In this document: piece by piece, positions 5,954-18,492 of the stretch
How the letters are laid out: each line of letters opens with the position of its first letter
Position numbering within the stretch: position 1 is the stretch's first letter
NCBI GenBank assembly: GCA_024408305.1
Contig: JAKSVD010000002.1
Location: 1-32,284, forward strand
DNA: 32,284 nt
From: Bacilli bacterium
GTDB taxonomy: Bacteria > Bacillota_I > Bacilli_A > RFN20 > CAG-826
Direction: 5' to 3'
Notes under the pieces: model-generated
The model's database searches: none
The model's input: only the letters and a program-made list of their open reading frames with translations
What the model was told of the DNA's origin: nothing
Position numbers and translations under genes: made by a program

Positions 5954-6719
5954 TTGTCAACCCCTCAATCTTGTTTATATAAAAACAGAAATCAGCTGAA
6001 TATGTAATGTATGAATGACCATCAACAACGGTCATATCATCCCCAACACCAGAAGTAATATCGTTGCCTAAATTTGCAGAATAAATTGTCTCTATCGAAA
6101 TCTCGTCATAATCGATGACAACATATACCCTGTCAGTGTTTGAAAACTGACATACCCTCGCTTTTTTATCGTCCACTAAATCCGTATAATCAGCATTTAT
6201 AAAATTAGTCTTTCTTGATGAATAGGTAGTTAAATCAACGGAATAAAATGTTTCATTGATTGTTAGCTCCGTATTATTTAAACCATAAAAACAGACAATA
6301 CTTGAAAGTGAATTTCCGGTTGCATGCAAGGAATAAATAGGATTGTCGTTTTCGTCTCTTTCAACAATACCTAAATATGAGTCTGAATACGTTTCAGCAG
6401 TAACCGAAATACTCATCTCGCTTTCCAAAACAATCTCCATCAGCAGTTGGTAACCTGAATTGATGATTGAATAGTAACCTAGTGTCTTACTGCTAATTGG
6501 GGTTTTGTCAAAATAATACTGTGTTTTCGTACCACTCATCTTTGAGCTGTATGGGTAGAAATTGACTTCCTTTACAACCTGATCCTTGATAACGGCAATG
6601 TTGCCAGCATCACCATCAGTAATCGGCCTAGTAGTAAACCAAGCAAGCGTAACTAAAGATAAGCCAACAACATTGGCCATCGTGAGTGAGATTAATGATA
6701 CTAGCTTGCCTGTTTTCAT
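5946..6719 (-). CDS. Small secreted protein S1 (257 aa) with an AWF-type signal peptide; candidate fibre/anchor subunit
   Basis: The track ORF 5946..6743 begins at a TTG that lies inside the riboswitch aptamer. I trimmed it to ATG 6719 (MKTGKLVSLISLTMANVVGLSLVTLAWFTTRPITDGDAGNIAVI...). It is paralogous to S2 (9966..10754). Confidence 0.85.
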   Translation of the reverse strand: MKTGKLVSLISLTMANVVGLSLVTLAWFTTRPITDGDAGNIAVIKDQVVKEVNFYPYSSKMSGTKTQYYFDKTPISSKTLGYYSIINSGYQLLMEIVLESEMSISVTAETYSDSYLGIVERDENDNPIYSLHATGNSLSSIVCFYGLNNTELTINETFYSVDLTTYSSRKTNFINADYTDLVDDKKARVCQFSNTDRVYVVIDYDEISIETIYSANLGNDITSGVGDDMTVVDGHSYITYSADFCFYINKIEGLTNG

Positions 6720-6730
6720 TCTTACTGATT

Positions 6731-6801
6731 CGGCAGCTGGCAATCCTTCTAGGACCCTAATAGCTTTGCGTCACTAGATTACTCTAGTTTTGCTTTTAAC
6801 G
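6731..6801 (-). promoter_or_regulatory. c-di-GMP-I (GEMM-I) riboswitch aptamer, copy 2
   Basis: Minus strand: GUUAAAAGCAAAACUAGA-GUAA-UCUAGUGACGCAAAGCUAUUAGGGUCCU-AGA-AGGAUUGCCAGCUGCCG. The first stem is CUAGA/UCUAG here versus CCAGA/UCUGG in copies 1 and 3, a compensatory change. The aptamer 3' end lies 11 nt from ATG 6719. Confidence 0.88.
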
Positions 6802-6806
6802 TGAAT

Positions 6807-6835
6807 AATGTAGCGTATGTGTGCGTAAAAGGCAA
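6807..6835 (-). promoter_or_regulatory. Promoter driving riboswitch copy 2
   Basis: Minus strand TTGCCT-17 nt-TACATT, about 9 nt upstream of AAAAGCAAA. Confidence 0.5.
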
Positions 6836-6900
6836 GAAAAACAAAAATACTGAAAATCGTTCTAATAACTGAAAATTAGATATCTTTTTTGTAATTTTGT

Positions 6901-9900
6901 TCATTGTATTGACGAAGCTGGTATTTCCCTTGTTGATGAGGCTTCAGTGACTTCAACATAATCATTCAAATTACTGGTTTTGATAAATACTTGGTAAAAA
7001 CCACTGTAATAGTTATATATCTTCAACGTTGTATTCGTATCTGCATAGCAATCAATCAAATATTTTCCAATATAAGTTGAACTTTCCCCTTCTTCAAATG
7101 CAACATATGAAACTTTAATTTTATATTGGAACGAAACAGCTAGTGTTTCAAAGAAAAAGTTTAATATAGTATTGTCAATAGTTTGAGGGTAATCTCTGTA
7201 TCCGACCGTACCAAAAGTTCCACCAAAACCGTCCTTTGCCTTGAATTCAAAGTCAATATTTGTAACCCAAGTTTGATATCCGTTGTTTGATTGCCCCCCA
7301 AGGCACATAACATATGTATCAATTTTAAGCTGGTCCTCACGAGACATTTCTGTCGATCCATCTGATGCGTATCTTCCAAGAATTCTGCCCTCAGAATCTA
7401 GTGCACAGTAAGAGGCCTTTTTGATATATTCTTCGTTTAAATCTAGGGATATTGTGTTGGTTAATTGGATGATGCCATTACCATCAGATTCCGTACCCGT
7501 TTCCTTAATTTTCATGAATCCATCGCGTTTTTTGAATGTAGGTTCAACGATATCACTTGAGTAGCCAAGAATCTTTGCTTGAACATAGGTAAATGCAATT
7601 TTTCCCATCGCATCATCTCTCGAATCTAGAGGGTTTGCAGTGTTTTTAATAAATAGAACGATGGAGCTAGGACATCTTTCGTTTGCATAAAAATGGTCGC
7701 CAACATCTGTTTCATTGATCAAAGACACTTTATCACCAGCCGATCTTTCGCTATCTAACCCAATGATAGCAATTTGCTGCCCAAAAAGTTCTTGATAATA
7801 AAACTGGGCGCCGTCACCAACAACATCGATATTTTTAGAACGATAGCCTGACTCATAAACAATGGTTTCCTCGCCAATAAAGTAATTAACATCGTCTGCA
7901 CCTTGAATTGGATCTCTGCTAATTAATGACAATCTCCATAGAGGGTTACCGCTATTAATATCAACCGAATATGTAAAGTTTGTATATTTTATGTCGGTTT
8001 CATCAATAACAACAAAATCAGCACTTTCAACGCCGTCAAACACTTCTTTGTACAACAACTTTGACTCAAAACTTCTTACGTCAACGTGAGGCATTAATCT
8101 ATCTTTGTTTTCTTCAAAATCAAATTTATGTGTCAAGAAATTCTCTTCTGGAATATCATTATCGATTTCTTTGAATTCTGTTTTGTTTTGTACATTAGTT
8201 TTGACGGATGGAACAACAAGACCGGAATTTACGTCATTTACAAGAACTTCGACCTGATCCAATGTGTTGTTGTCGGAATTATAATTACCATAAACAAATG
8301 TGTGCGTATATGATGTTCCCCAGGCCGTGTACTGGTAACTGATATAAATCGAAAACTTATGGTACCCTTCTTGCAATTTCCTTTGAACAGGTTGAACTGT
8401 AAATGTGCATTCATAATATCTACCAGCCAAACTGGCTCCAGCAGATAAAGCCTCGCTTTTATACGTTATATCTAGTGGGATTTTTTTTTTATTGTTAAAT
8501 ATATAACCCGTAATATTCAAATCAGGTGCAAACCATTTTCTCTCTTGAGTCGTGAAGTTTGGTATTTTACATAGGACATCAAAATCATAGTTGTCATAGC
8601 CATTAATAACTTGTCTGTCGTAAGATTCTCCATAAAAATAGCAATTGTAATTTGGATCATCTGGATCATTGTTTTTGTAATAATATGCTGTCGGGGCTTC
8701 TTGTTTTGTCTCTGGGTTTACTATAAGTCCCTCGCCCGAACCGATCATGGATTCCGTAACATAACTTGGCTGAGTAGCCGGCATTTTAATTGCACCGTCA
8801 TGAGAGTGATCATCGCCATCCAATTCGATGTACTCTCTATCTTCGTAGTAAACGTTATAGTCATGTCTGGCCTCTACATATTCTGGCGTAGCATAACCGA
8901 TCGTGGAAAGCGAATAACCGTCCTGAAGGTCATACGTTGTACCAACAACGTTAGAAGAAGGTTTAACTGAACTTGAAAATGGTTCGATAATGTTTTGTGT
9001 TCCAGTCTTTATTTGCCTTTGAACTTTATCGCCATTATCATTGGCTTCCAAATTTTCAGTTTGGCGAACATTTCTAAGTACTAACTGCTGGTCGTTAATT
9101 GAGTCATATGTATTATCGAAATAATTAAAAACAGCCTGAGAGTTTAATGTAAATTGATAGTCATTACCTTGTCCAAACGAGCCTCCCAAAGAATCCTTTG
9201 TAGCCTTTCCGTAATATCCATAATTGTTAATTTGTTTATTCGTGGTAGAACCCATCAAAGTACAATCGTTAACATAGACATTGGTAAAGTTAGAAGCATC
9301 CTCAATGTGGCCTGCAATATACCCAAAATGAACAGCTGAATCATTGTGGAAATGACTTTCTGATGTCGTATATCTTCCATAAGACGTCTCTATCTCAAAA
9401 TTTTTGAAATAAGCATTTGAGCAAGTTCCTTCATCAACATAACCAAAAATACCTATGTCAGAGAAAAATTTATCATCTTTTTTTGCAGATATTTTAAAAC
9501 TTGAAATGGTAATATTGTTGCCGCTAATAACAGAATTGAATGGCAGATCTTCAGAACCTAATGGTGGCAACACTTCAGTTCCAGTACAGTCAAGAACAGT
9601 TGAAACCCCTCCATTAGATGGATCATATTTTCCGTTCGAATAATTATAGACTTGAATCTTGCCGTCTCCATTAATGTCCGCACCAAAAGAGAAATGATAC
9701 TTTTTCTCCGCAAATCCAGGGAGATTATAATGGAGGAGAACCATATTTTCGTAATGTTTTGGTCTGGTAATGGTAAATGGATCATCTTCTGAACCATCTC
9801 CAGAATGGAAATATTTTTGAAGGACGGACCCCGTTAATCCGTCCGCAGGAACATCAATGTTGTCCTGTGAAATGAACCAAGCTGCAGCAAAACCGCTAGA

Positions 9901-9966
9901 AAGCAAAAGCCCAAAAGAACAGATGGATGAGACTATCAATGCAAACTTAGATTTATTAAAAGTCAT
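6901..9966 (-). CDS. Giant secreted/surface protein L2 (1021 aa): AWF-type signal peptide, GLUG/beta-helix-like N-module; putative adhesin
   Basis: Long ORF with GGGGGAGG 7 nt upstream. The start overlaps the S2 stop (TAATG). N-terminus is MTFNKSKFALIVSSICSFGLLLSSGFAAAWFISQD. 'YFHSGDGSEDDPFTITRPKHYENM...LPPLG...PFNSVISGNNITISSFKI' is paralogous to L1. Confidence 0.9.
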   Translation of the reverse strand: MTFNKSKFALIVSSICSFGLLLSSGFAAAWFISQDNIDVPADGLTGSVLQKYFHSGDGSEDDPFTITRPKHYENMVLLHYNLPGFAEKKYHFSFGADINGDGKIQVYNYSNGKYDPSNGGVSTVLDCTGTEVLPPLGSEDLPFNSVISGNNITISSFKISAKKDDKFFSDIGIFGYVDEGTCSNAYFKNFEIETSYGRYTTSESHFHNDSAVHFGYIAGHIEDASNFTNVYVNDCTLMGSTTNKQINNYGYYGKATKDSLGGSFGQGNDYQFTLNSQAVFNYFDNTYDSINDQQLVLRNVRQTENLEANDNGDKVQRQIKTGTQNIIEPFSSSVKPSSNVVGTTYDLQDGYSLSTIGYATPEYVEARHDYNVYYEDREYIELDGDDHSHDGAIKMPATQPSYVTESMIGSGEGLIVNPETKQEAPTAYYYKNNDPDDPNYNCYFYGESYDRQVINGYDNYDFDVLCKIPNFTTQERKWFAPDLNITGYIFNNKKKIPLDITYKSEALSAGASLAGRYYECTFTVQPVQRKLQEGYHKFSIYISYQYTAWGTSYTHTFVYGNYNSDNNTLDQVEVLVNDVNSGLVVPSVKTNVQNKTEFKEIDNDIPEENFLTHKFDFEENKDRLMPHVDVRSFESKLLYKEVFDGVESADFVVIDETDIKYTNFTYSVDINSGNPLWRLSLISRDPIQGADDVNYFIGEETIVYESGYRSKNIDVVGDGAQFYYQELFGQQIAIIGLDSERSAGDKVSLINETDVGDHFYANERCPSSIVLFIKNTANPLDSRDDAMGKIAFTYVQAKILGYSSDIVEPTFKKRDGFMKIKETGTESDGNGIIQLTNTISLDLNEEYIKKASYCALDSEGRILGRYASDGSTEMSREDQLKIDTYVMCLGGQSNNGYQTWVTNIDFEFKAKDGFGGTFGTVGYRDYPQTIDNTILNFFFETLAVSFQYKIKVSYVAFEEGESSTYIGKYLIDCYADTNTTLKIYNYYSGFYQVFIKTSNLNDYVEVTEASSTREIPASSIQ
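8481..8490 (-). repeat. A10 homopolymer inside the L2 coding sequence (T10 on the plus strand)
   Basis: Coding strand AAC AAU AAA AAA AAA AUC (..NNKKKI..). This is the longest homopolymer I found in the window. Confidence 0.9.
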
Positions 9967-10754
9967 TAGTTTGCCTCCCCCGCAAATTCAAAACGCACAA
10001 TATCGCAGTCAAAGGAAATTGCTGTACCTTCTAAATTATCTGCAGTAATTTGTCCGACATCTGAATTGTCAAAATAATAGTCAACTAAAGTTTCATCATA
10101 AAAATATTCAATGTAGAGAACGGTGATTTTATCATCTGCCGTTTCATCTATATCGAGATTTCTCAAATGAATTGTTTTATCGATCGCTTTGGTTCCGACT
10201 CCATCAGACACAGTCACATAGCTAAATGAAGTATCAATAGTGTCGAAGATATCAAATGCAGAATCATAAATTGTCGATGCTGAAGTTTCATCTAATGCAC
10301 CGGCAATAGAGTCGTGTTTCAGGAAGTATTTAAAACCAATGATATTGGACATGTTGTTACACACGTGATCATTAGAATCGGTAAAGTCTCCATTTGAAGG
10401 AATGTCAACATTGAAGGTGGTATCAGAAGATGTGTCACCCTTGGATATAATTTCCATTCTTAAAATCTTGTTATTGTGAACATTTCTATCCTTAATAAAA
10501 GTATCGTATTGAGGAAGCGCAAAACGATCACCGGTCTTTTCTTTATCAACTGCAATTCTTCCCGAACGGTTATCTTCATCGTATTCGTAAAGTTCAAAAT
10601 CAACGTCCAGTGGGTCGTCTGATATCGCAGTAATCTGGCCCATTGAATTATCCGCTCTTTGATTTGCAGTAAACCATGCGAATGTAAGCATGCCTAAACA
10701 AACGACATTCATCGCTAGTAAACTGGACAAGGCTGCTACAACACTCTTTTTCAT
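9966..10754 (-). CDS. Small secreted protein S2 (262 aa) with an AWF-type signal peptide; paralog of S1
   Basis: MKKSVVAALSSLLAMNVVCLGMLTFAWFTANQRADNSMGQITAI... The ATG lies 13 nt downstream of aptamer copy 3. The C-terminal strand 'ITVLYIEYFYDE' corresponds to S1 'RVYVVIDYDE'. Confidence 0.9.
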   Translation of the reverse strand: MKKSVVAALSSLLAMNVVCLGMLTFAWFTANQRADNSMGQITAISDDPLDVDFELYEYDEDNRSGRIAVDKEKTGDRFALPQYDTFIKDRNVHNNKILRMEIISKGDTSSDTTFNVDIPSNGDFTDSNDHVCNNMSNIIGFKYFLKHDSIAGALDETSASTIYDSAFDIFDTIDTSFSYVTVSDGVGTKAIDKTIHLRNLDIDETADDKITVLYIEYFYDETLVDYYFDNSDVGQITADNLEGTAISFDCDIVRFEFAGEAN

Positions 10755-10767
10755 CTTAAGTAATTAC

Positions 10768-10838
10768 CGGCAGCTGGCTATCCAATTTGGACCCTTTTAG
10801 CTTTGCGTCACCAGATTGCTCTGGCTTTGCTTTTTCAC
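10768..10838 (-). promoter_or_regulatory. c-di-GMP-I (GEMM-I) riboswitch aptamer, copy 3
   Basis: Minus strand: GUGAAAAAGCAAAGCCAGA-GCAA-UCUGGUGACGCAAAGCUAAAAGGGUCCA-AAU-UGGAUAGCCAGCUGCCGG. Confidence 0.88.
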
Positions 10839-16400: not shown

Positions 16401-16544
16401 AAGCGTTACGATCTTGTTACCTGTGATTCCTCCGACGATGATAAGCACAAGTAAGATGACTCCGCCGACTCCGCCGGAAATGAATTCGACGAGTCTTAGG
16501 TACTTTACCTTCTGTGAGATGTTTAATTTGCTACTTGCTTCCAT
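13488..16544 (-). CDS. Membrane-anchored multidomain protein (1018 aa) with degenerate GGDEF and partly degenerate EAL domains; candidate c-di-GMP receptor/sensor
   Basis: AGGAGGAAAA lies 7 nt upstream. Two N-terminal TM helices are present. A GGDEF-like fold reads 'LLNLANFRNMVSVLGEPVTNQFLRELGD...FSYNASTIAIL' and has no GGDEF motif. The EAL-like domain keeps EVLLR, N (LNVDS) and ELNE. It has CDNYTG for DDFGTG, KLA for KxD and EGW for QGY. A five-Cys cluster lies at 14901..15008. Confidence 0.9.
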   Translation of the reverse strand: MEASSKLNISQKVKYLRLVEFISGGVGGVILLVLIIVGGITGNKIVTLILGILALMFIGLSAGSAYFYVKTIRQGVVKPLFERTAENMDKVSKNKYNLEQYPVDAPGGEFSQLNDAIAKINGKYNTIVMMSAVADMSEIGLEKDPSFGGKTIAKESFFASIPAMVNVSKSFRNAMVSFIYDTTEANPSHADMARLLDVINEVFADNAPVVSQDTDYSFIAFMSNIDSISIVESKLRYVVHKSTIARFGEKSTDVLPLKVSMSVYPYSSVETIVSDLRYAERRGQDINVYLPERSLDKDALVTEAQRINAVGEIIERMNTAFTKKGNVEAYREEVIACATSISDFLGFEGVAVLAKNSSTGEVSQIADHCTIEGKHIVLRNDGAAIIEELAKVADKDGSLTFFNRENITSNLGKYLDIYGIVSGHMSLVYSNGQVYAALIFVNFTKKLVLDAYSRESLVVFSNLFASSLKELHSRGTIEGSAAQLDSLLLYSAYQMYTINKNTYTLLSHSRGLCSATKGKDGEKCYKAIYGLDAPCADCPIRHGKKKRCVIDNKNYAYHTILSNRENKVDATLFLEPTDRRNLARERYDSETKLATPYSLAMRMADKWNYNLKGNLVLLNLANFRNMVSVLGEPVTNQFLRELGDVIASTGVTHDEVFSYNASTIAILLNEITRTDIFRSIEKVEKALKDKFNDEYQGFKIEKSYRVFSYPMTFASSFDFLRHVEVYFNSNNTRGDNQLHLIDANIVRPAYREAYIYSLLAKAFENKNFDIRIQPIVSKASGVINGGEVLLRLNDELTNSFFDAGEFIPIASKHSSMGRFTNIMIEQIGNLYKTYGATIFRSGFLDRISLNVDSIYFQNDQFLNDMQAAILEYNFAKGFINFELNEADIAANVEVIREASRKIRDLNISLVCDNYTGKDISIEQLAKLGFTEVKLARTLVMEIDSNPNRLNEVKSLIALAKTFNFKVTLVGIERREQVNVVFDEEGINNFEGWYFFKPLVIDEFLSLLKTASSKQAILK

Positions 16545-16778: not shown

Positions 16779-17564
16779 CTATTCACATTCGTTTTCTTTC
16801 TTTCTCAATTGTTTTCTGTATCGGTAATATTTGTCGATTGAGATGTCCAAAAACTCGGAAACATCCCTATAAGTGGCCCTACCACTTTTTACCAATTCCT
16901 CAAATTCCCTAAATCTTTTTTCATCAACCTCTATTGGTTTGCGGCCTAGATACTTCTTTTCTAATTTAGCCTTATCCCTGCCATGTTTTAGCACTGTATT
17001 CTTGTATAGTGATGACTTCTGATACATTTTTCTTAGCAAAGAGAACGTTGTTTGTCTATTTTCGTCATCAATAATTTCACCTGAATAAAAGACATCGTTT
17101 CCTTTTGCTAATTCATCGAGGATACGCTTGATGATGGTTGGAATGTTATCAGTTGAGCTATCATCAATATCCACGGTCTTCTTTTCTTCATGTGGCAGGA
17201 CAATTAATTTGTCACCCGAATATCTTGTCTTAACCCTCATTAGATATTCAAGCGGGTTCATGTAGTCCATACCAACACTTTCAAGCATTTCCCAATAATC
17301 TTCACGATTCTCTTGTGGAACTCTTTCAGAAATGAAGACAGGAAGGACATTCTCTCTTACATAGACCTCTTTCCTTAGATCAAGGTTTAACCCAGGAATG
17401 CCTGCAAAACACTTAGGATCTACAATATCGATAACGCTGAAATTTGGTTTAAAAATATACTTAAAAGTACCATCCTCGTTCTCTATATGGGTGATGGAGG
17501 AAAGTCTATATATGATATTTTCATGTTCTACGCAAATAGAAGCGTTGGTGACAACACTATTCAT
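16779..17564 (-). CDS. HipS-like (HipA N-subdomain-like) domain fused to a C-terminal resolvase-type HTH (261 aa); candidate antitoxin/regulator
   Basis: GGAGG lies 8 nt upstream and the ATG overlaps the kinase stop by 8 nt. The N-terminal ~125 aa align by eye with E. coli HipA residues ~5-110 (DGTFKYIFKPNF vs GAHTFKYAPEW; VLPVFISERVP...NPLEYLMRVKTRYSGDKLIVLPHEE vs FDNLLPDSPI...PFDLLSEIGRDSVGAVTLIPEDE). The C-terminus 'GRKPIEVDEKRFREFEELVKSGRATYRDVSEFLDISIDKYYRYRKQ' has the HTH pattern of serine-recombinase C-domains. Confidence 0.75.
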   Translation of the reverse strand: MNSVVTNASICVEHENIIYRLSSITHIENEDGTFKYIFKPNFSVIDIVDPKCFAGIPGLNLDLRKEVYVRENVLPVFISERVPQENREDYWEMLESVGMDYMNPLEYLMRVKTRYSGDKLIVLPHEEKKTVDIDDSSTDNIPTIIKRILDELAKGNDVFYSGEIIDDENRQTTFSLLRKMYQKSSLYKNTVLKHGRDKAKLEKKYLGRKPIEVDEKRFREFEELVKSGRATYRDVSEFLDISIDKYYRYRKQLRKKENECE

Positions 17565-18426
17565 CTTTCATGCCTCCAATTAATTTTTCATATGAGCTAA
17601 GAAGTATCTTCTCATATCTGTGTTTCAACATCGTTTTATAAAAACTTTTTTGAATATCGCTAATGCATGATATTCCATCAATGAAGTTATAGATACGATC
17701 CATATTTAACCTATCCATAACCCACTTTAATTGTTCATTACACTTTTCAAATGATAAGGAAGATATTACCTCATAATAAGAACTCTTCTTGCCGTTGATC
17801 TTAATCTGAGAAGTCGGATATTTGTACACTCTATCGTTTATCTCTTCTTCGTTAGACAAAACATATAGCATCTCGTTTTCATCAACCATTTGTGGATATA
17901 AACATGACCCATTATCAAAGACCGGCGCCAAAGAATAAGAATTCCCCTTTTTGATAAAACCCCAATTTGCACCATGCCTATCGAAATTTCCGATCAAAGC
18001 GTCGACAATAAATACCCTGAAAAAGATATCTATTGCCTCCTCGACATCAGTGATTTTTATGTTCCTTTTGAGCAAAACAAGGATATCTTCATAAGAATAC
18101 TGATAATGTTCAACATCAGTTTCGATGGTTGATTCTCCTACTGCATTGAAGGGAATGAAGAAGGTATCGTCTAGAACAAAATCACGGCAGGCAACAACGT
18201 TTTCACCTTTATAAGTGCCTAGTTGAGTTTCGTGGACGTCAATGCCGATTAATTCAAAAATATGGCTACCAATATATTCCGAAATATGATTGTTTCTTCT
18301 CCCGAACTGAGTGCGGCTTTGAATTTTTAGCATGTATTTAACGCCATTATTTACGATACCGATTTTACGTTCGGAACCACCATACCTGATGCCGCTTAAT
18401 CTACAAGATGAGTAATCAATAACCAT
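17557..18426 (-). CDS. HipA-family Ser/Thr kinase core lacking the N-subdomain (HipT-like), 289 aa
   Basis: The track ORF starts at TTG 18462. I trimmed it to ATG 18426 because AAGGAGG lies 7 nt upstream. The P-loop-like 'IRYGGSERKIG' corresponds to HipA 'VAGAQEKTA'. The catalytic-core signature 'GNFDRHGANWGF...LAPVFDNG' corresponds to HipA 'GN.DRH.KN...LAP.YD'. Confidence 0.8.
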   Translation of the reverse strand: MVIDYSSCRLSGIRYGGSERKIGIVNNGVKYMLKIQSRTQFGRRNNHISEYIGSHIFELIGIDVHETQLGTYKGENVVACRDFVLDDTFFIPFNAVGESTIETDVEHYQYSYEDILVLLKRNIKITDVEEAIDIFFRVFIVDALIGNFDRHGANWGFIKKGNSYSLAPVFDNGSCLYPQMVDENEMLYVLSNEEEINDRVYKYPTSQIKINGKKSSYYEVISSLSFEKCNEQLKWVMDRLNMDRIYNFIDGISCISDIQKSFYKTMLKHRYEKILLSSYEKLIGGMKDE

Positions 18427-18492
18427 AGCATACCCTCCTTCACAATATGCTATATTCGACAAATTATATTTGCAATAGGTTATCTTTTATTT

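Follow-up and report, generated by a model that had tools for sequence, protein, structure and literature searches.

The window analysed here is a stretch of 32,284 nucleotides (nt) from a Bacilli bacterium (assembly GCA_024408305.1, contig JAKSVD010000002.1, positions 1 to 32,284), in which we find four aptamers of the cyclic di-GMP class I riboswitch (c-di-GMP-I; Rfam RF01051, GEMM-I), all on the minus strand and all, at 52.8–61.8 bits, above the family's gathering score of 35 bits. The 1.6-Mb, 70%-complete assembly holds no RF01051 aptamers beyond these four. Two of them, copies 2 and 3, each stand directly before a cassette made of a small gene (S1 or S2) and a giant gene (L1 or L2), and how these two aptamers may control the genes that follow them almost without a gap is the subject of this report. 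The coordinates of all features are collected in Table 1.

Table 1. Aptamers, platforms, and genes of the window, in window numbering (SD, Shine–Dalgarno sequence; MFE, minimum free energy; z, z score of the fold; shuffles, shuffled sequences that fold as well)
Feature	Position	Strand	Details	Basis
Aptamer copy 1	981-903	-	58.5 bits; controls membrane protein gene	RF01051
Aptamer-coupled terminator-like element, copy 1	911-856	-	GCUGCC (911-906) with GGCAGC (870-865), then GUUUUAAUU	sequence
Second long hairpin, copy 1	838-761	-	ends at 771, then CUUUUGUUUAUUUU (U tract 770-761)	region z -2.19, 5/200 shuffles
Putative promoter, cassette 2	6835-6807	-	TTGCCT (6835-6830), 17 nt, TACATT (6812-6807)	by eye
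Aptamer copy 2	6804-6729	-	59.2 bits, E 2.4e-09; controls S1/L1	RF01051
5' arm of anti-aptamer hairpin, cassette 2	6742-6732	-	aptamer 3' strand UGCCAGCUGCC	MFE folds
Spacer, cassette 2	6730-6720	-	AAUCAGUAAGA, between aptamer end (GCCG) and S1 AUG; 11 nt, SD-less	sequence
3' arm, cassette 2	6710-6699	-	GGCAAGCUAGUA, S1 codons 3-7; 10 bp, one bulge, one mismatch, AUG in loop	MFE folds
S1	6719-5946	-	257 aa, secreted or membrane protein: MKTGK N-terminus, hydrophobic stretch, LAWFT	ORF, homologue alignment
L1	5953-2753	-	1066 aa, own FAWF signal-like N-terminus	SD GAGGGG at 5966-5961
Putative promoter, cassette 3	10871-10843	-	TTGATA, 17 nt, TATACT	scan, 10/12 consensus
Aptamer copy 3	10841-10766	-	52.8 bits; controls S2/L2	RF01051
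Spacer, cassette 3	10767-10755	-	GUAAUUACUUAAG; 13 nt, SD-less	sequence
Candidate 3' arm, cassette 3	10736-10720	-	GCAGCCUUGUCCAGUUU, S2 codons 7-12, pairing with aptamer AAAUUGGAUAGCCAGCUGC (10788-10770)	MFE -20.5 kcal/mol
S2	9966-10754 (10754-9966)	-	262 aa, S1 paralog	24% identity to S1
L2	9966-6901	-	1021 aa	SD GGGGGAGG at 9981-9974
Aptamer copy 4	16703-16628	-	61.8 bits; controls two GGDEF/EAL genes	RF01051
Intrinsic terminator, copy 4	16599-16571	-	AGCGGCA...UGCCGCU then UUUAUC	fold -24.7 kcal/mol, z -3.51, 0/200 shuffles
Two GGDEF/EAL genes under copy 4	16544-13488, 13429-10985	-		Pfam
A at Vc2 G20-equivalent position	6795, 10832, 16694, 971	-	one in each aptamer copy	Rfam alignment

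Aptamer-to-gene junctions of the S genes

Rfam matches, sequence, and folds agree with an earlier note on this DNA that the four copies follow two layouts: terminators made of a hairpin and a U tract come after copies 1 and 4 but not after copies 2 and 3. The 3' end of copy 2 (...GCCAGCUGCCG) leads through an 11-nt spacer, AAUCAGUAAGA, to the AUG at 6719, and that of copy 3 (...GCCAGCUGCCG) through a 13-nt spacer, GUAAUUACUUAAG, to the AUG at 10754, the same distances as previously noted. Neither spacer contains an SD, the free energy (dG) of the duplex with the anti-SD being -0.9 kcal/mol for copy 2 and -3.1 kcal/mol for copy 3, and neither contains a hairpin with a U tract; a G+C-rich hairpin followed directly by a U tract, as in an intrinsic terminator, is not seen for copies 2 and 3, whose tails read AUCAUUAAUC and ACUAGCGAUG. 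Homologues of S1 and S2 begin with MKK at the same aligned position, so the two ATGs are likely the true starts. Other starts were considered and ruled out: the upstream in-frame TTG at 6743 would begin S1 inside the aptamer, with AGAAGGA directly abutting it, while the downstream Met codons (codon 14 of S1 and codon 15 of S2) are SD-less and would drop the Lys-rich N-terminus common to the homologues.

The spacers also lie outside the ligand-bound fold. The P1 closing helix, which pairs the last C of the terminal GCC with a G ~6 nt 5' of the conserved GCAAA and extends onward, covaries across 76 aptamers of the family, yet at most ~2 bp of it can form in copies 2 and 3, and the 76-aptamer alignment shows no longer P1 helix that would take up the spacer. 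Nor is the start site built into an aptamer helix, there being no SD and the AUG lying 11–13 nt past the last aptamer pair.

Because the spacer is too short for a separate platform, the control of S1 and S2 would have to act at or around translation initiation, and to this extent the earlier placing of the switch holds. Its use of the missing SD as evidence fares less well: the absence is real but says less than was assumed. Across the assembly, 58% of the 897 open reading frames (ORFs) with 200 aa or more offer a candidate start whose anti-SD dG is -7 kcal/mol or below, against 16% at control positions (measured with a generic anti-SD, as the assembly contains no 16S 3' end), so that roughly half of the genes are SD-less. 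Strong SDs in only about half of the long ORFs is a low share for Bacilli.

The giant genes have the strong SDs that were quoted for them, GAGGGG for L1 and GGGGGAGG for L2, each 7 nt before an ATG that overlaps the stop of the S gene (ATGGATAG for L1, TAATG for L2). Coupling of L to S, as had been suggested, is plausible, and the TAATG stop/start overlap recurs in four of the six related loci examined.

Proposed switching arms in relatives and in the window

The S family is rare, with 10 proteins at E <= 0.001 among 5.8 billion. Its profile has matches in 79 of the 401 genomes examined from the organism's bacterial family, which are small, and RF01051 is present in 23 of 61 sampled genomes of that family; a scan of genome contigs with the profile returned 2 loci only, and a scan of metagenome contigs gave 188 pattern matches, of which none was confirmed. 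An aptamer, either c-di-GMP-I or its GGC variant, lies just upstream in 27 of the 32 related loci that were scanned with Rfam (17/20 and 10/12). Seven aptamers (L043, L044, L046, L050, L052, L056, and L063) are best described as c-di-GMP-I-GGC, RF03167, at 59.2–63.8 bits against a gathering score of 59.

A regular expression recovered 78 distinct aptamers in the related loci L001-L125; removing 14 with downstream genes that are not of the AWF type and 2 without an ORF left 62 junctions, in which the start codons of L069 and L062 were reassigned by eye and that of L040 is ambiguous (5 or 17 nt). We define d as the distance in nt between the terminal GCC of the aptamer and the start codon, and we compared the aptamer 3' strand with the 115 nt downstream, using 200 shuffles per junction and calling a complement significant if at most 10 of the 200 matched it. 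Such a complement is found in 31 of the 62 junctions, which sort into the following classes: (i) 22 junctions with a classical ON terminator, in which the significant complement precedes the start, a U tract follows, and the 5' arm is the aptamer strand; (ii) four (L017, L045, L046, and L099) with complement and U tract inside or across the ORF start; (iii) seven compact junctions (d <= 14 nt; S1, S2, L034, L042, L117, L090, and L040) whose arm is non-significant in the 115-nt test; (iv) 24 with d > 14 nt and no significant arm, 10 of which have an SD with dG <= -7 kcal/mol and several of which have terminators by eye; and (v) five of other kinds. At two variable positions of the strand the partners change together across the 31 junctions (C-G 14, U-A 9, U-G 4 at the first; G-C 16, G-U 7, A-U 6 at the second); these pairs were picked by energy, and the shuffles are the real test of significance.

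On this comparison of sequences, the usual platform of the family is a predicted terminator with ON logic that uses the 3' strand of the aptamer itself as its 5' arm. The S2-type orthologs of the MERKYK subgroup (L037, L142, and L140) follow it, with a classical ON-type terminator and an SD. An SD is absent in 14 of the 22 classical terminator junctions as well. The ten junctions with d <= 14 come from several S-like subfamilies and genomes, are all SD-less, and cluster tightly (d = 11–12 in seven; 5, 9, and 14 once each). A further subfamily (L078, L080, L083, L084, L118, L102, L092, and L137-L139, with MADFRSKRLK or MIDYRSNRLK N-termini) has an aptamer, 22–30 nt with a strong SD, and no terminator; its start is often GGC-AUG-GCA, which could pair with both GCC motifs of the aptamer strand, and it would be a third, purely translational layout.

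In several relatives, the 3' arm of the predicted switch lies inside the gene. At L017, CCAGCUGC pairs with GCAGCUGG in codons 9–11 and UUUUUUAUG follows, so that the element spans codons 9–13; the fold reaches -19.8 kcal/mol (z -3.42, 0/200 shuffles), and that of L045 -18.8 kcal/mol (z -4.29, 0/200 shuffles). At L099 the arm covers both SD and AUG, with the U tract at codons 3–6 (0/200 shuffles). In L017, L045/L046, and L099, the start codon thus lies within the terminator loop, and these in-ORF elements have the hairpin with a directly following U tract of an intrinsic terminator. An S1 ortholog, L128 (55% identity), has a 21-nt spacer that includes AGGAG, and its codons 3–8 (GGC AAA CUG CUA UCC C) pair over 15 bp with the 3' strand of its own P3, before UGUUUCUAUU (fold -33.1 kcal/mol, z -3.09, 1/200 shuffles; duplex tests p 0.0035 and 0.002). 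A more distant S1 ortholog, L042 (~40% identity), carries GCAACUUGG at codons 4–7, complementary to CCAGUUGC (p 0.0275 and 0.053). A mutually exclusive downstream partner for the aptamer strand, the mark of strand exchange, is clear in L017, L045, L099, and L128, and in L017, L045/L046, L099, and L128 a predicted switching 3' arm with a U-rich tail inside the ORF is statistically clear. The register of the in-ORF helix and the length of the spacer vary between loci.

S1 is predicted to keep such a complement at codons 3–7. MFE folds close the aptamer 3' strand UGCCAGCUGCC against GGCAAGCUAGUA, with the AUG in the loop (-11.5 kcal/mol, z -2.07, 6/200 shuffles), and in a duplex test restricted to the first 30 coding nt the complement has a p of 0.003. 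It also covaries with the aptamer in L128: Lys is encoded by AAG in S1, whose aptamer strand is CAGCUGCC with C as the partner base, and by AAA in L128, whose strand is CAGUUGCC with U as the partner, a synonymous exchange that keeps the pair. If strand exchange is right, this site suggests that constraints of protein coding and RNA switching can fall on the same codons. For S2, the candidate arm GCAGCCUUGUCCAGUUU in codons 7–12 may pair with AAAUUGGAUAGCCAGCUGC, and the 16-bp extended pairing has a p of 0.029 in the duplex test with a 27-nt strand; support for this arm is weak.

Energy modelling favours the anti-aptamer state over aptamer plus independent downstream folding by 7.8 kcal/mol for S1, 1.4 for S2, 1.8 for L034, 6.1 for L042, 13.0 for L017, and 11.1 for L045. 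The cost of opening positions -12 to +16 is 9.1 kcal/mol in the free RNA versus 4.8 with the aptamer locked for S1, and 4.7 versus 3.2 for S2, and it is higher without the aptamer lock in 10 of the 10 junctions with d <= 14.

Proposed compact strand exchange and its alternatives

We put at roughly an even chance the reading in which copies 2 and 3 act as compact c-di-GMP-I riboswitches of the ON type, by strand exchange with the early coding region; on this reading their expression platform would not be missing but would lie within the first 3 to 12 codons of the two S genes. In the absence of ligand, the aptamer 3' strand (GCCAGCUGCC and part of the P3 helix) would pair with codons 3–12, so that a hairpin would enclose the AUG, which has no SD, along with its flanks and keep the 30S subunit from loading; in some relatives the same hairpin, together with its in-ORF U tract, should also terminate transcription. 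With ligand bound, the aptamer would retain its strand, leaving the A/U-rich region from about -11 to +20 single-stranded from the aptamer's 3' edge, so that S would be translated and L would follow by coupling through the overlapping stop and start codons.

Several observations weigh against strand exchange at copies 2 and 3. The S1 arm is non-significant over the whole 115 nt downstream (p 0.18, 39/200 shuffles), with a longer 5' strand (p 0.119), and in the extended fold (z -0.61, 46/200), and no U tract follows the arm in S1 or S2. The short hairpin of S2 is at chance (-8.8 kcal/mol, z +0.22, 115/200 shuffles fold as well), its extended fold has a z of -1.0 (30/200), the 14-nt strand test gives p 0.30, and its energy gap is the smallest of those listed above; its compact ortholog L034 (57% identity) has p 0.12 in both duplex tests, and the compact relatives L117 and L090 are without an arm (p 0.76 and 0.44). 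The relatives are kin, which makes the junction counts non-independent; L128 was found by a search of the genus (78 genomes) after the hypothesis was formed, and the other position-restricted windows were chosen post hoc. The folding considers secondary structure only, without tertiary structure, ligand energy, or co-transcriptional kinetics, and the blocking of initiation by a hairpin that leaves the AUG in a 21–30-nt loop is an assumption of the model.

The weakness of the S2 arm bears on the proposal of the earlier note, in which no separate platform exists and the ligand-bound fold gates the ribosome directly. By such direct occlusion, an aptamer 11–13 nt before the AUG would sterically block the 30S subunit, and c-di-GMP would turn S and L translation OFF with no alternative pairing. 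The proximity of aptamer and AUG and the absence of an SD are real, neither S2 nor L034 has an arm clearly above chance, and the tight clustering of d could reflect a steric requirement. The distance itself argues otherwise: an mRNA exits the 30S channel at about 11–14 nt, a distance that would just let a folded aptamer clear the ribosome instead of colliding with it. Orthologs moreover use ON terminators, so OFF logic would invert regulation between orthologs. Direct occlusion is an established riboswitch group, which a 2024 review separates from strand exchange, but its members build the ribosome-binding site (RBS) into an aptamer helix (PMC10907184), whereas the junctions of S1 and S2 are SD-less with the spacer outside the fold. 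With the spacer outside the aptamer, ON-type orthologs, and arms inside the ORF in relatives and in S1, we do not uphold direct gating as a general account and regard it as improbable; the S2 arm being barely above chance, S2 is where room is left for it.

A second alternative places control mainly at transcription, with hairpins and U-rich tails in the first 25 codons halting RNA polymerase as long as no ligand is bound to the aptamer and no ribosome is already translating through. The in-ORF arms and tails of L017, L045/L046, L099, and L128 fit this, as does a terminator-like hairpin in S1 codons 14–22 (6678-6652, minus strand), GGCCAAUGUUGUUGGCU (6678-6662) followed by UAUCUUUAGU, which L128 keeps as GGCCAAUAUGGUUGGUC and UUUCUUUAG through synonymous changes (GGC UUA to GGU CUU) that preserve the pairs. 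Terminator-like hairpins also occur in the first 130 nt of 15/62 riboswitch-controlled AWF genes, against 73/937 control ORF starts and 35/937 internal windows, an enrichment that may, however, reflect relatedness among the sequences and the U-richness of codons for hydrophobic signal peptides. In S1 and S2 themselves the anti-aptamer arm is not directly followed by a U tract, we found no antiterminator that connects with the 6678-6662 hairpin, and S2 has just a 5–6-bp hairpin in that region, so that we think this account unlikely for the two copies.

The promoters bring in a third possibility. A sigma-70-like promoter precedes each aptamer, with its -10 box ending 14–16 nt before the conserved GCAAA, a spacing that implies a transcription start a few nt 5' of the aptamer. 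The putative promoter of cassette 2 has 8 of 12 consensus positions and falls below the listing of the promoter scan; a -10-like TAAT at equal distance is common across the 76-aptamer alignment. With a start this near to the aptamer, in each of the four copies and throughout the family, a ligand-stabilised 5'-terminal structure might protect the mRNA from 5' exonuclease or position the 30S subunit in place of an SD, giving ON logic with no strand exchange. None of the ten compact junctions has an SD, their spacing is tightly clustered, and aptamer-less S-like genes do have an SD (dG -6.4 to -11.8 kcal/mol in 5 loci, two of them identical), all of which is in keeping with such a structure. The idea is purely inferential, though, and leaves the conserved complement in the S1 lineage unexplained; we hold it to be quite improbable.

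A fourth possibility is that the platform of copy 2, copy 3, or both has decayed, the aptamer binding its ligand with no appreciable control of expression. The near-chance alternative pairing of S2 and its small energy gap would agree with decay, and there is precedent in the c-di-GMP-I riboswitch Bc1, which barely affects its gene under physiological conditions (PMC11218506). Against decay, the aptamers of copies 2 and 3 are well conserved (52.8–59.2 bits), and ten junctions, spread over several S-like subfamilies and genomes, share the compact layout, which argues for selection; we judge it, too, to have a very small probability.

Strand exchange at copies 2 and 3 may be set beside known systems. 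One is Bc2 of Bacillus thuringiensis, upstream of cap, a c-di-GMP-I ON riboswitch with which c-di-GMP raises downstream expression and whose target is a surface or adhesion protein; it has a separate platform in the 5' untranslated region, the Bc2 element compared in that study being 152 bp long (PMC11218506), as opposed to the 11–13-nt spacer, missing SD, and candidate arm in the coding sequence of copies 2 and 3. Bc1 marks the opposite extreme, with a long platform (220 nt from aptamer to AUG), two terminators, dual effects on transcription and translation, and incoherent behaviour (PMC11218506); its two successive terminator-like elements recall copy 1, and it shares with our reading the idea of joint transcriptional and translational control by one c-di-GMP-I element. 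SAM-II and preQ1-I/II, as direct-occlusion riboswitches, resemble copies 2 and 3 in having no separate platform and a start site that adjoins the aptamer, but they are OFF switches with the RBS within an aptamer helix (PMC10907184). In the add adenine riboswitch of Vibrio vulnificus, the ligand frees RBS and AUG from a sequester hairpin, an ON switch by strand exchange (PMC10907184). That riboswitch belongs to another aptamer class and has an SD, whereas in S1 and S2 the AUG would lie in the loop and the arm at codons 3–12. The add platform reaches only the first codon or so. Regulation by the E. coli btuB cobalamin riboswitch does need coding-region sequence, but this is an OFF switch of another aptamer class with an SD. 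In open-access full text, we found no description of a riboswitch terminator that encloses the start codon or lies within a coding region.

Surveys of riboswitches search for platforms between aptamer and start codon, so that an in-ORF platform would be missed or read as absent, and if strand exchange with the early codons is right, the loci illustrate how small a transcriptional ON switch can become. We can imagine, as a speculative extension that we think rather unlikely, a c-di-GMP-I lineage that has lost its 5'-UTR platform and in which the 3' arm of the terminator or sequestor, in some members with its U tract, is written in signal-peptide codons with the start codon in the terminator loop, so that one hairpin sets both transcription and SD-independent translation, and in whose most reduced members, S2 for example, the ligand-bound aptamer at the extreme 5' end may replace the SD, either by positioning the ribosome or by making the mRNA more stable.

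Ligand, copies 1 and 4, and the S and L proteins

The ligand of the four aptamers is suggested by their class and could be c-di-GMP and/or 3',3'-cyclic GMP-AMP (3',3'-cGAMP). In the Rfam alignments, the first hairpin has its GNRA tetraloop (GUAA in copies 1 and 2, GCAA in copies 3 and 4), and a check of ligand contacts against G20, A47, and C92 of the Vc2 aptamer finds the ACGCAAAGC and GCC motifs in all copies. The base at the G20 position (Rfam column 11, just 5' of GCAAA) is A in all four, as it is in 49 of the 76 family aptamers, 24 having G. The G20A variant of Vc2 accepts c-di-GMP and 3',3'-cGAMP alike, and natural variants with A20 can show the same dual specificity (PMC6140456), so the A in our copies leaves c-di-GMP, 3',3'-cGAMP, or both as candidate ligands.

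The other two aptamers have longer downstream regions. After copy 4 come a hairpin (16599-16577), UUUUAUCAUU, an SD, AGGAGG (16556-16551), and the ATG at 16544, which bears out the terminator followed by an SD reported for this copy; upstream of the terminator, GUUACC/GGUAAU makes an anti-aptamer hairpin and GUCGCUA/UAGCGGC may serve as an antiterminator. At copy 1, the terminator noted earlier (761-815) falls within the hairpin region 838-761, after which come GGGGA and the ATG at 747. The earlier note had missed an element upstream of it whose 5' arm is the aptamer strand. This element has GAUAGGCAG and a U run in common with the terminators of L025, L007, and L021, a homology judged by eye; MAFFT aligned the relatives to the second hairpin instead, which leaves the assignment ambiguous. 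By inference, copies 1 and 4 would also be ON switches.

S1, S2, L1, and L2 all start with a hydrophobic stretch that ends in AWF[TIL]; in the S homologues a Lys-rich N-terminus precedes this stretch and the motif (AWFT) is invariant. L1 and L2 are 27% identical across their N-terminal 300 residues, and none of the four proteins has a Pfam or NCBIfam family. An AlphaFold 2 model of S2 (predicted local distance difference test, pLDDT, 68.7) has a beta-sandwich fold; Foldseek found no match to it in the PDB at E <= 0.001, and a wide fold search gave the Epf adhesin (Z 6.0), the cannula fibre (Z 5.8), and the TasA fibre (Z 4.7), all in the noise range. The AWF motif resembles the signal of TasA, a secreted fibre protein of the SipW-dependent TasA/camelysin kind. 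An archaeal-type (SipW-like) signal peptidase I, TIGR02228, is encoded on a separate contig (G000:C150:1707-2030, locus L126; 58.2 bits, cut-off 51.85), in keeping with the signal-like AWF N-termini of the S and L proteins. Open-access full text yielded nothing on c-di-GMP riboswitches upstream of TasA or SipW genes.

The loci link c-di-GMP with two secreted protein families, S and L, that had no name before, and the aptamer found at 27 of the 32 scanned loci in uncultured, small-genome gut Bacilli offers a lead to surface or matrix components. An S-like domain forms the N-terminus of open frames of 971-1502 aa in L043, L047, L048, L049, L051, L053, L057, and others, which suggests that S may exist as part of a giant protein too; a tblastn search using L1 and L2 as queries gave no match in the examined parts of these S-fusion loci (L043, L047-L049, L051, L053, and L057). 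Just upstream of the promoter region of copy 4 lies a 301-aa ORF (17557-18462) whose C-terminal kinase domain is HipA-like (Pfam E 7.5e-15).

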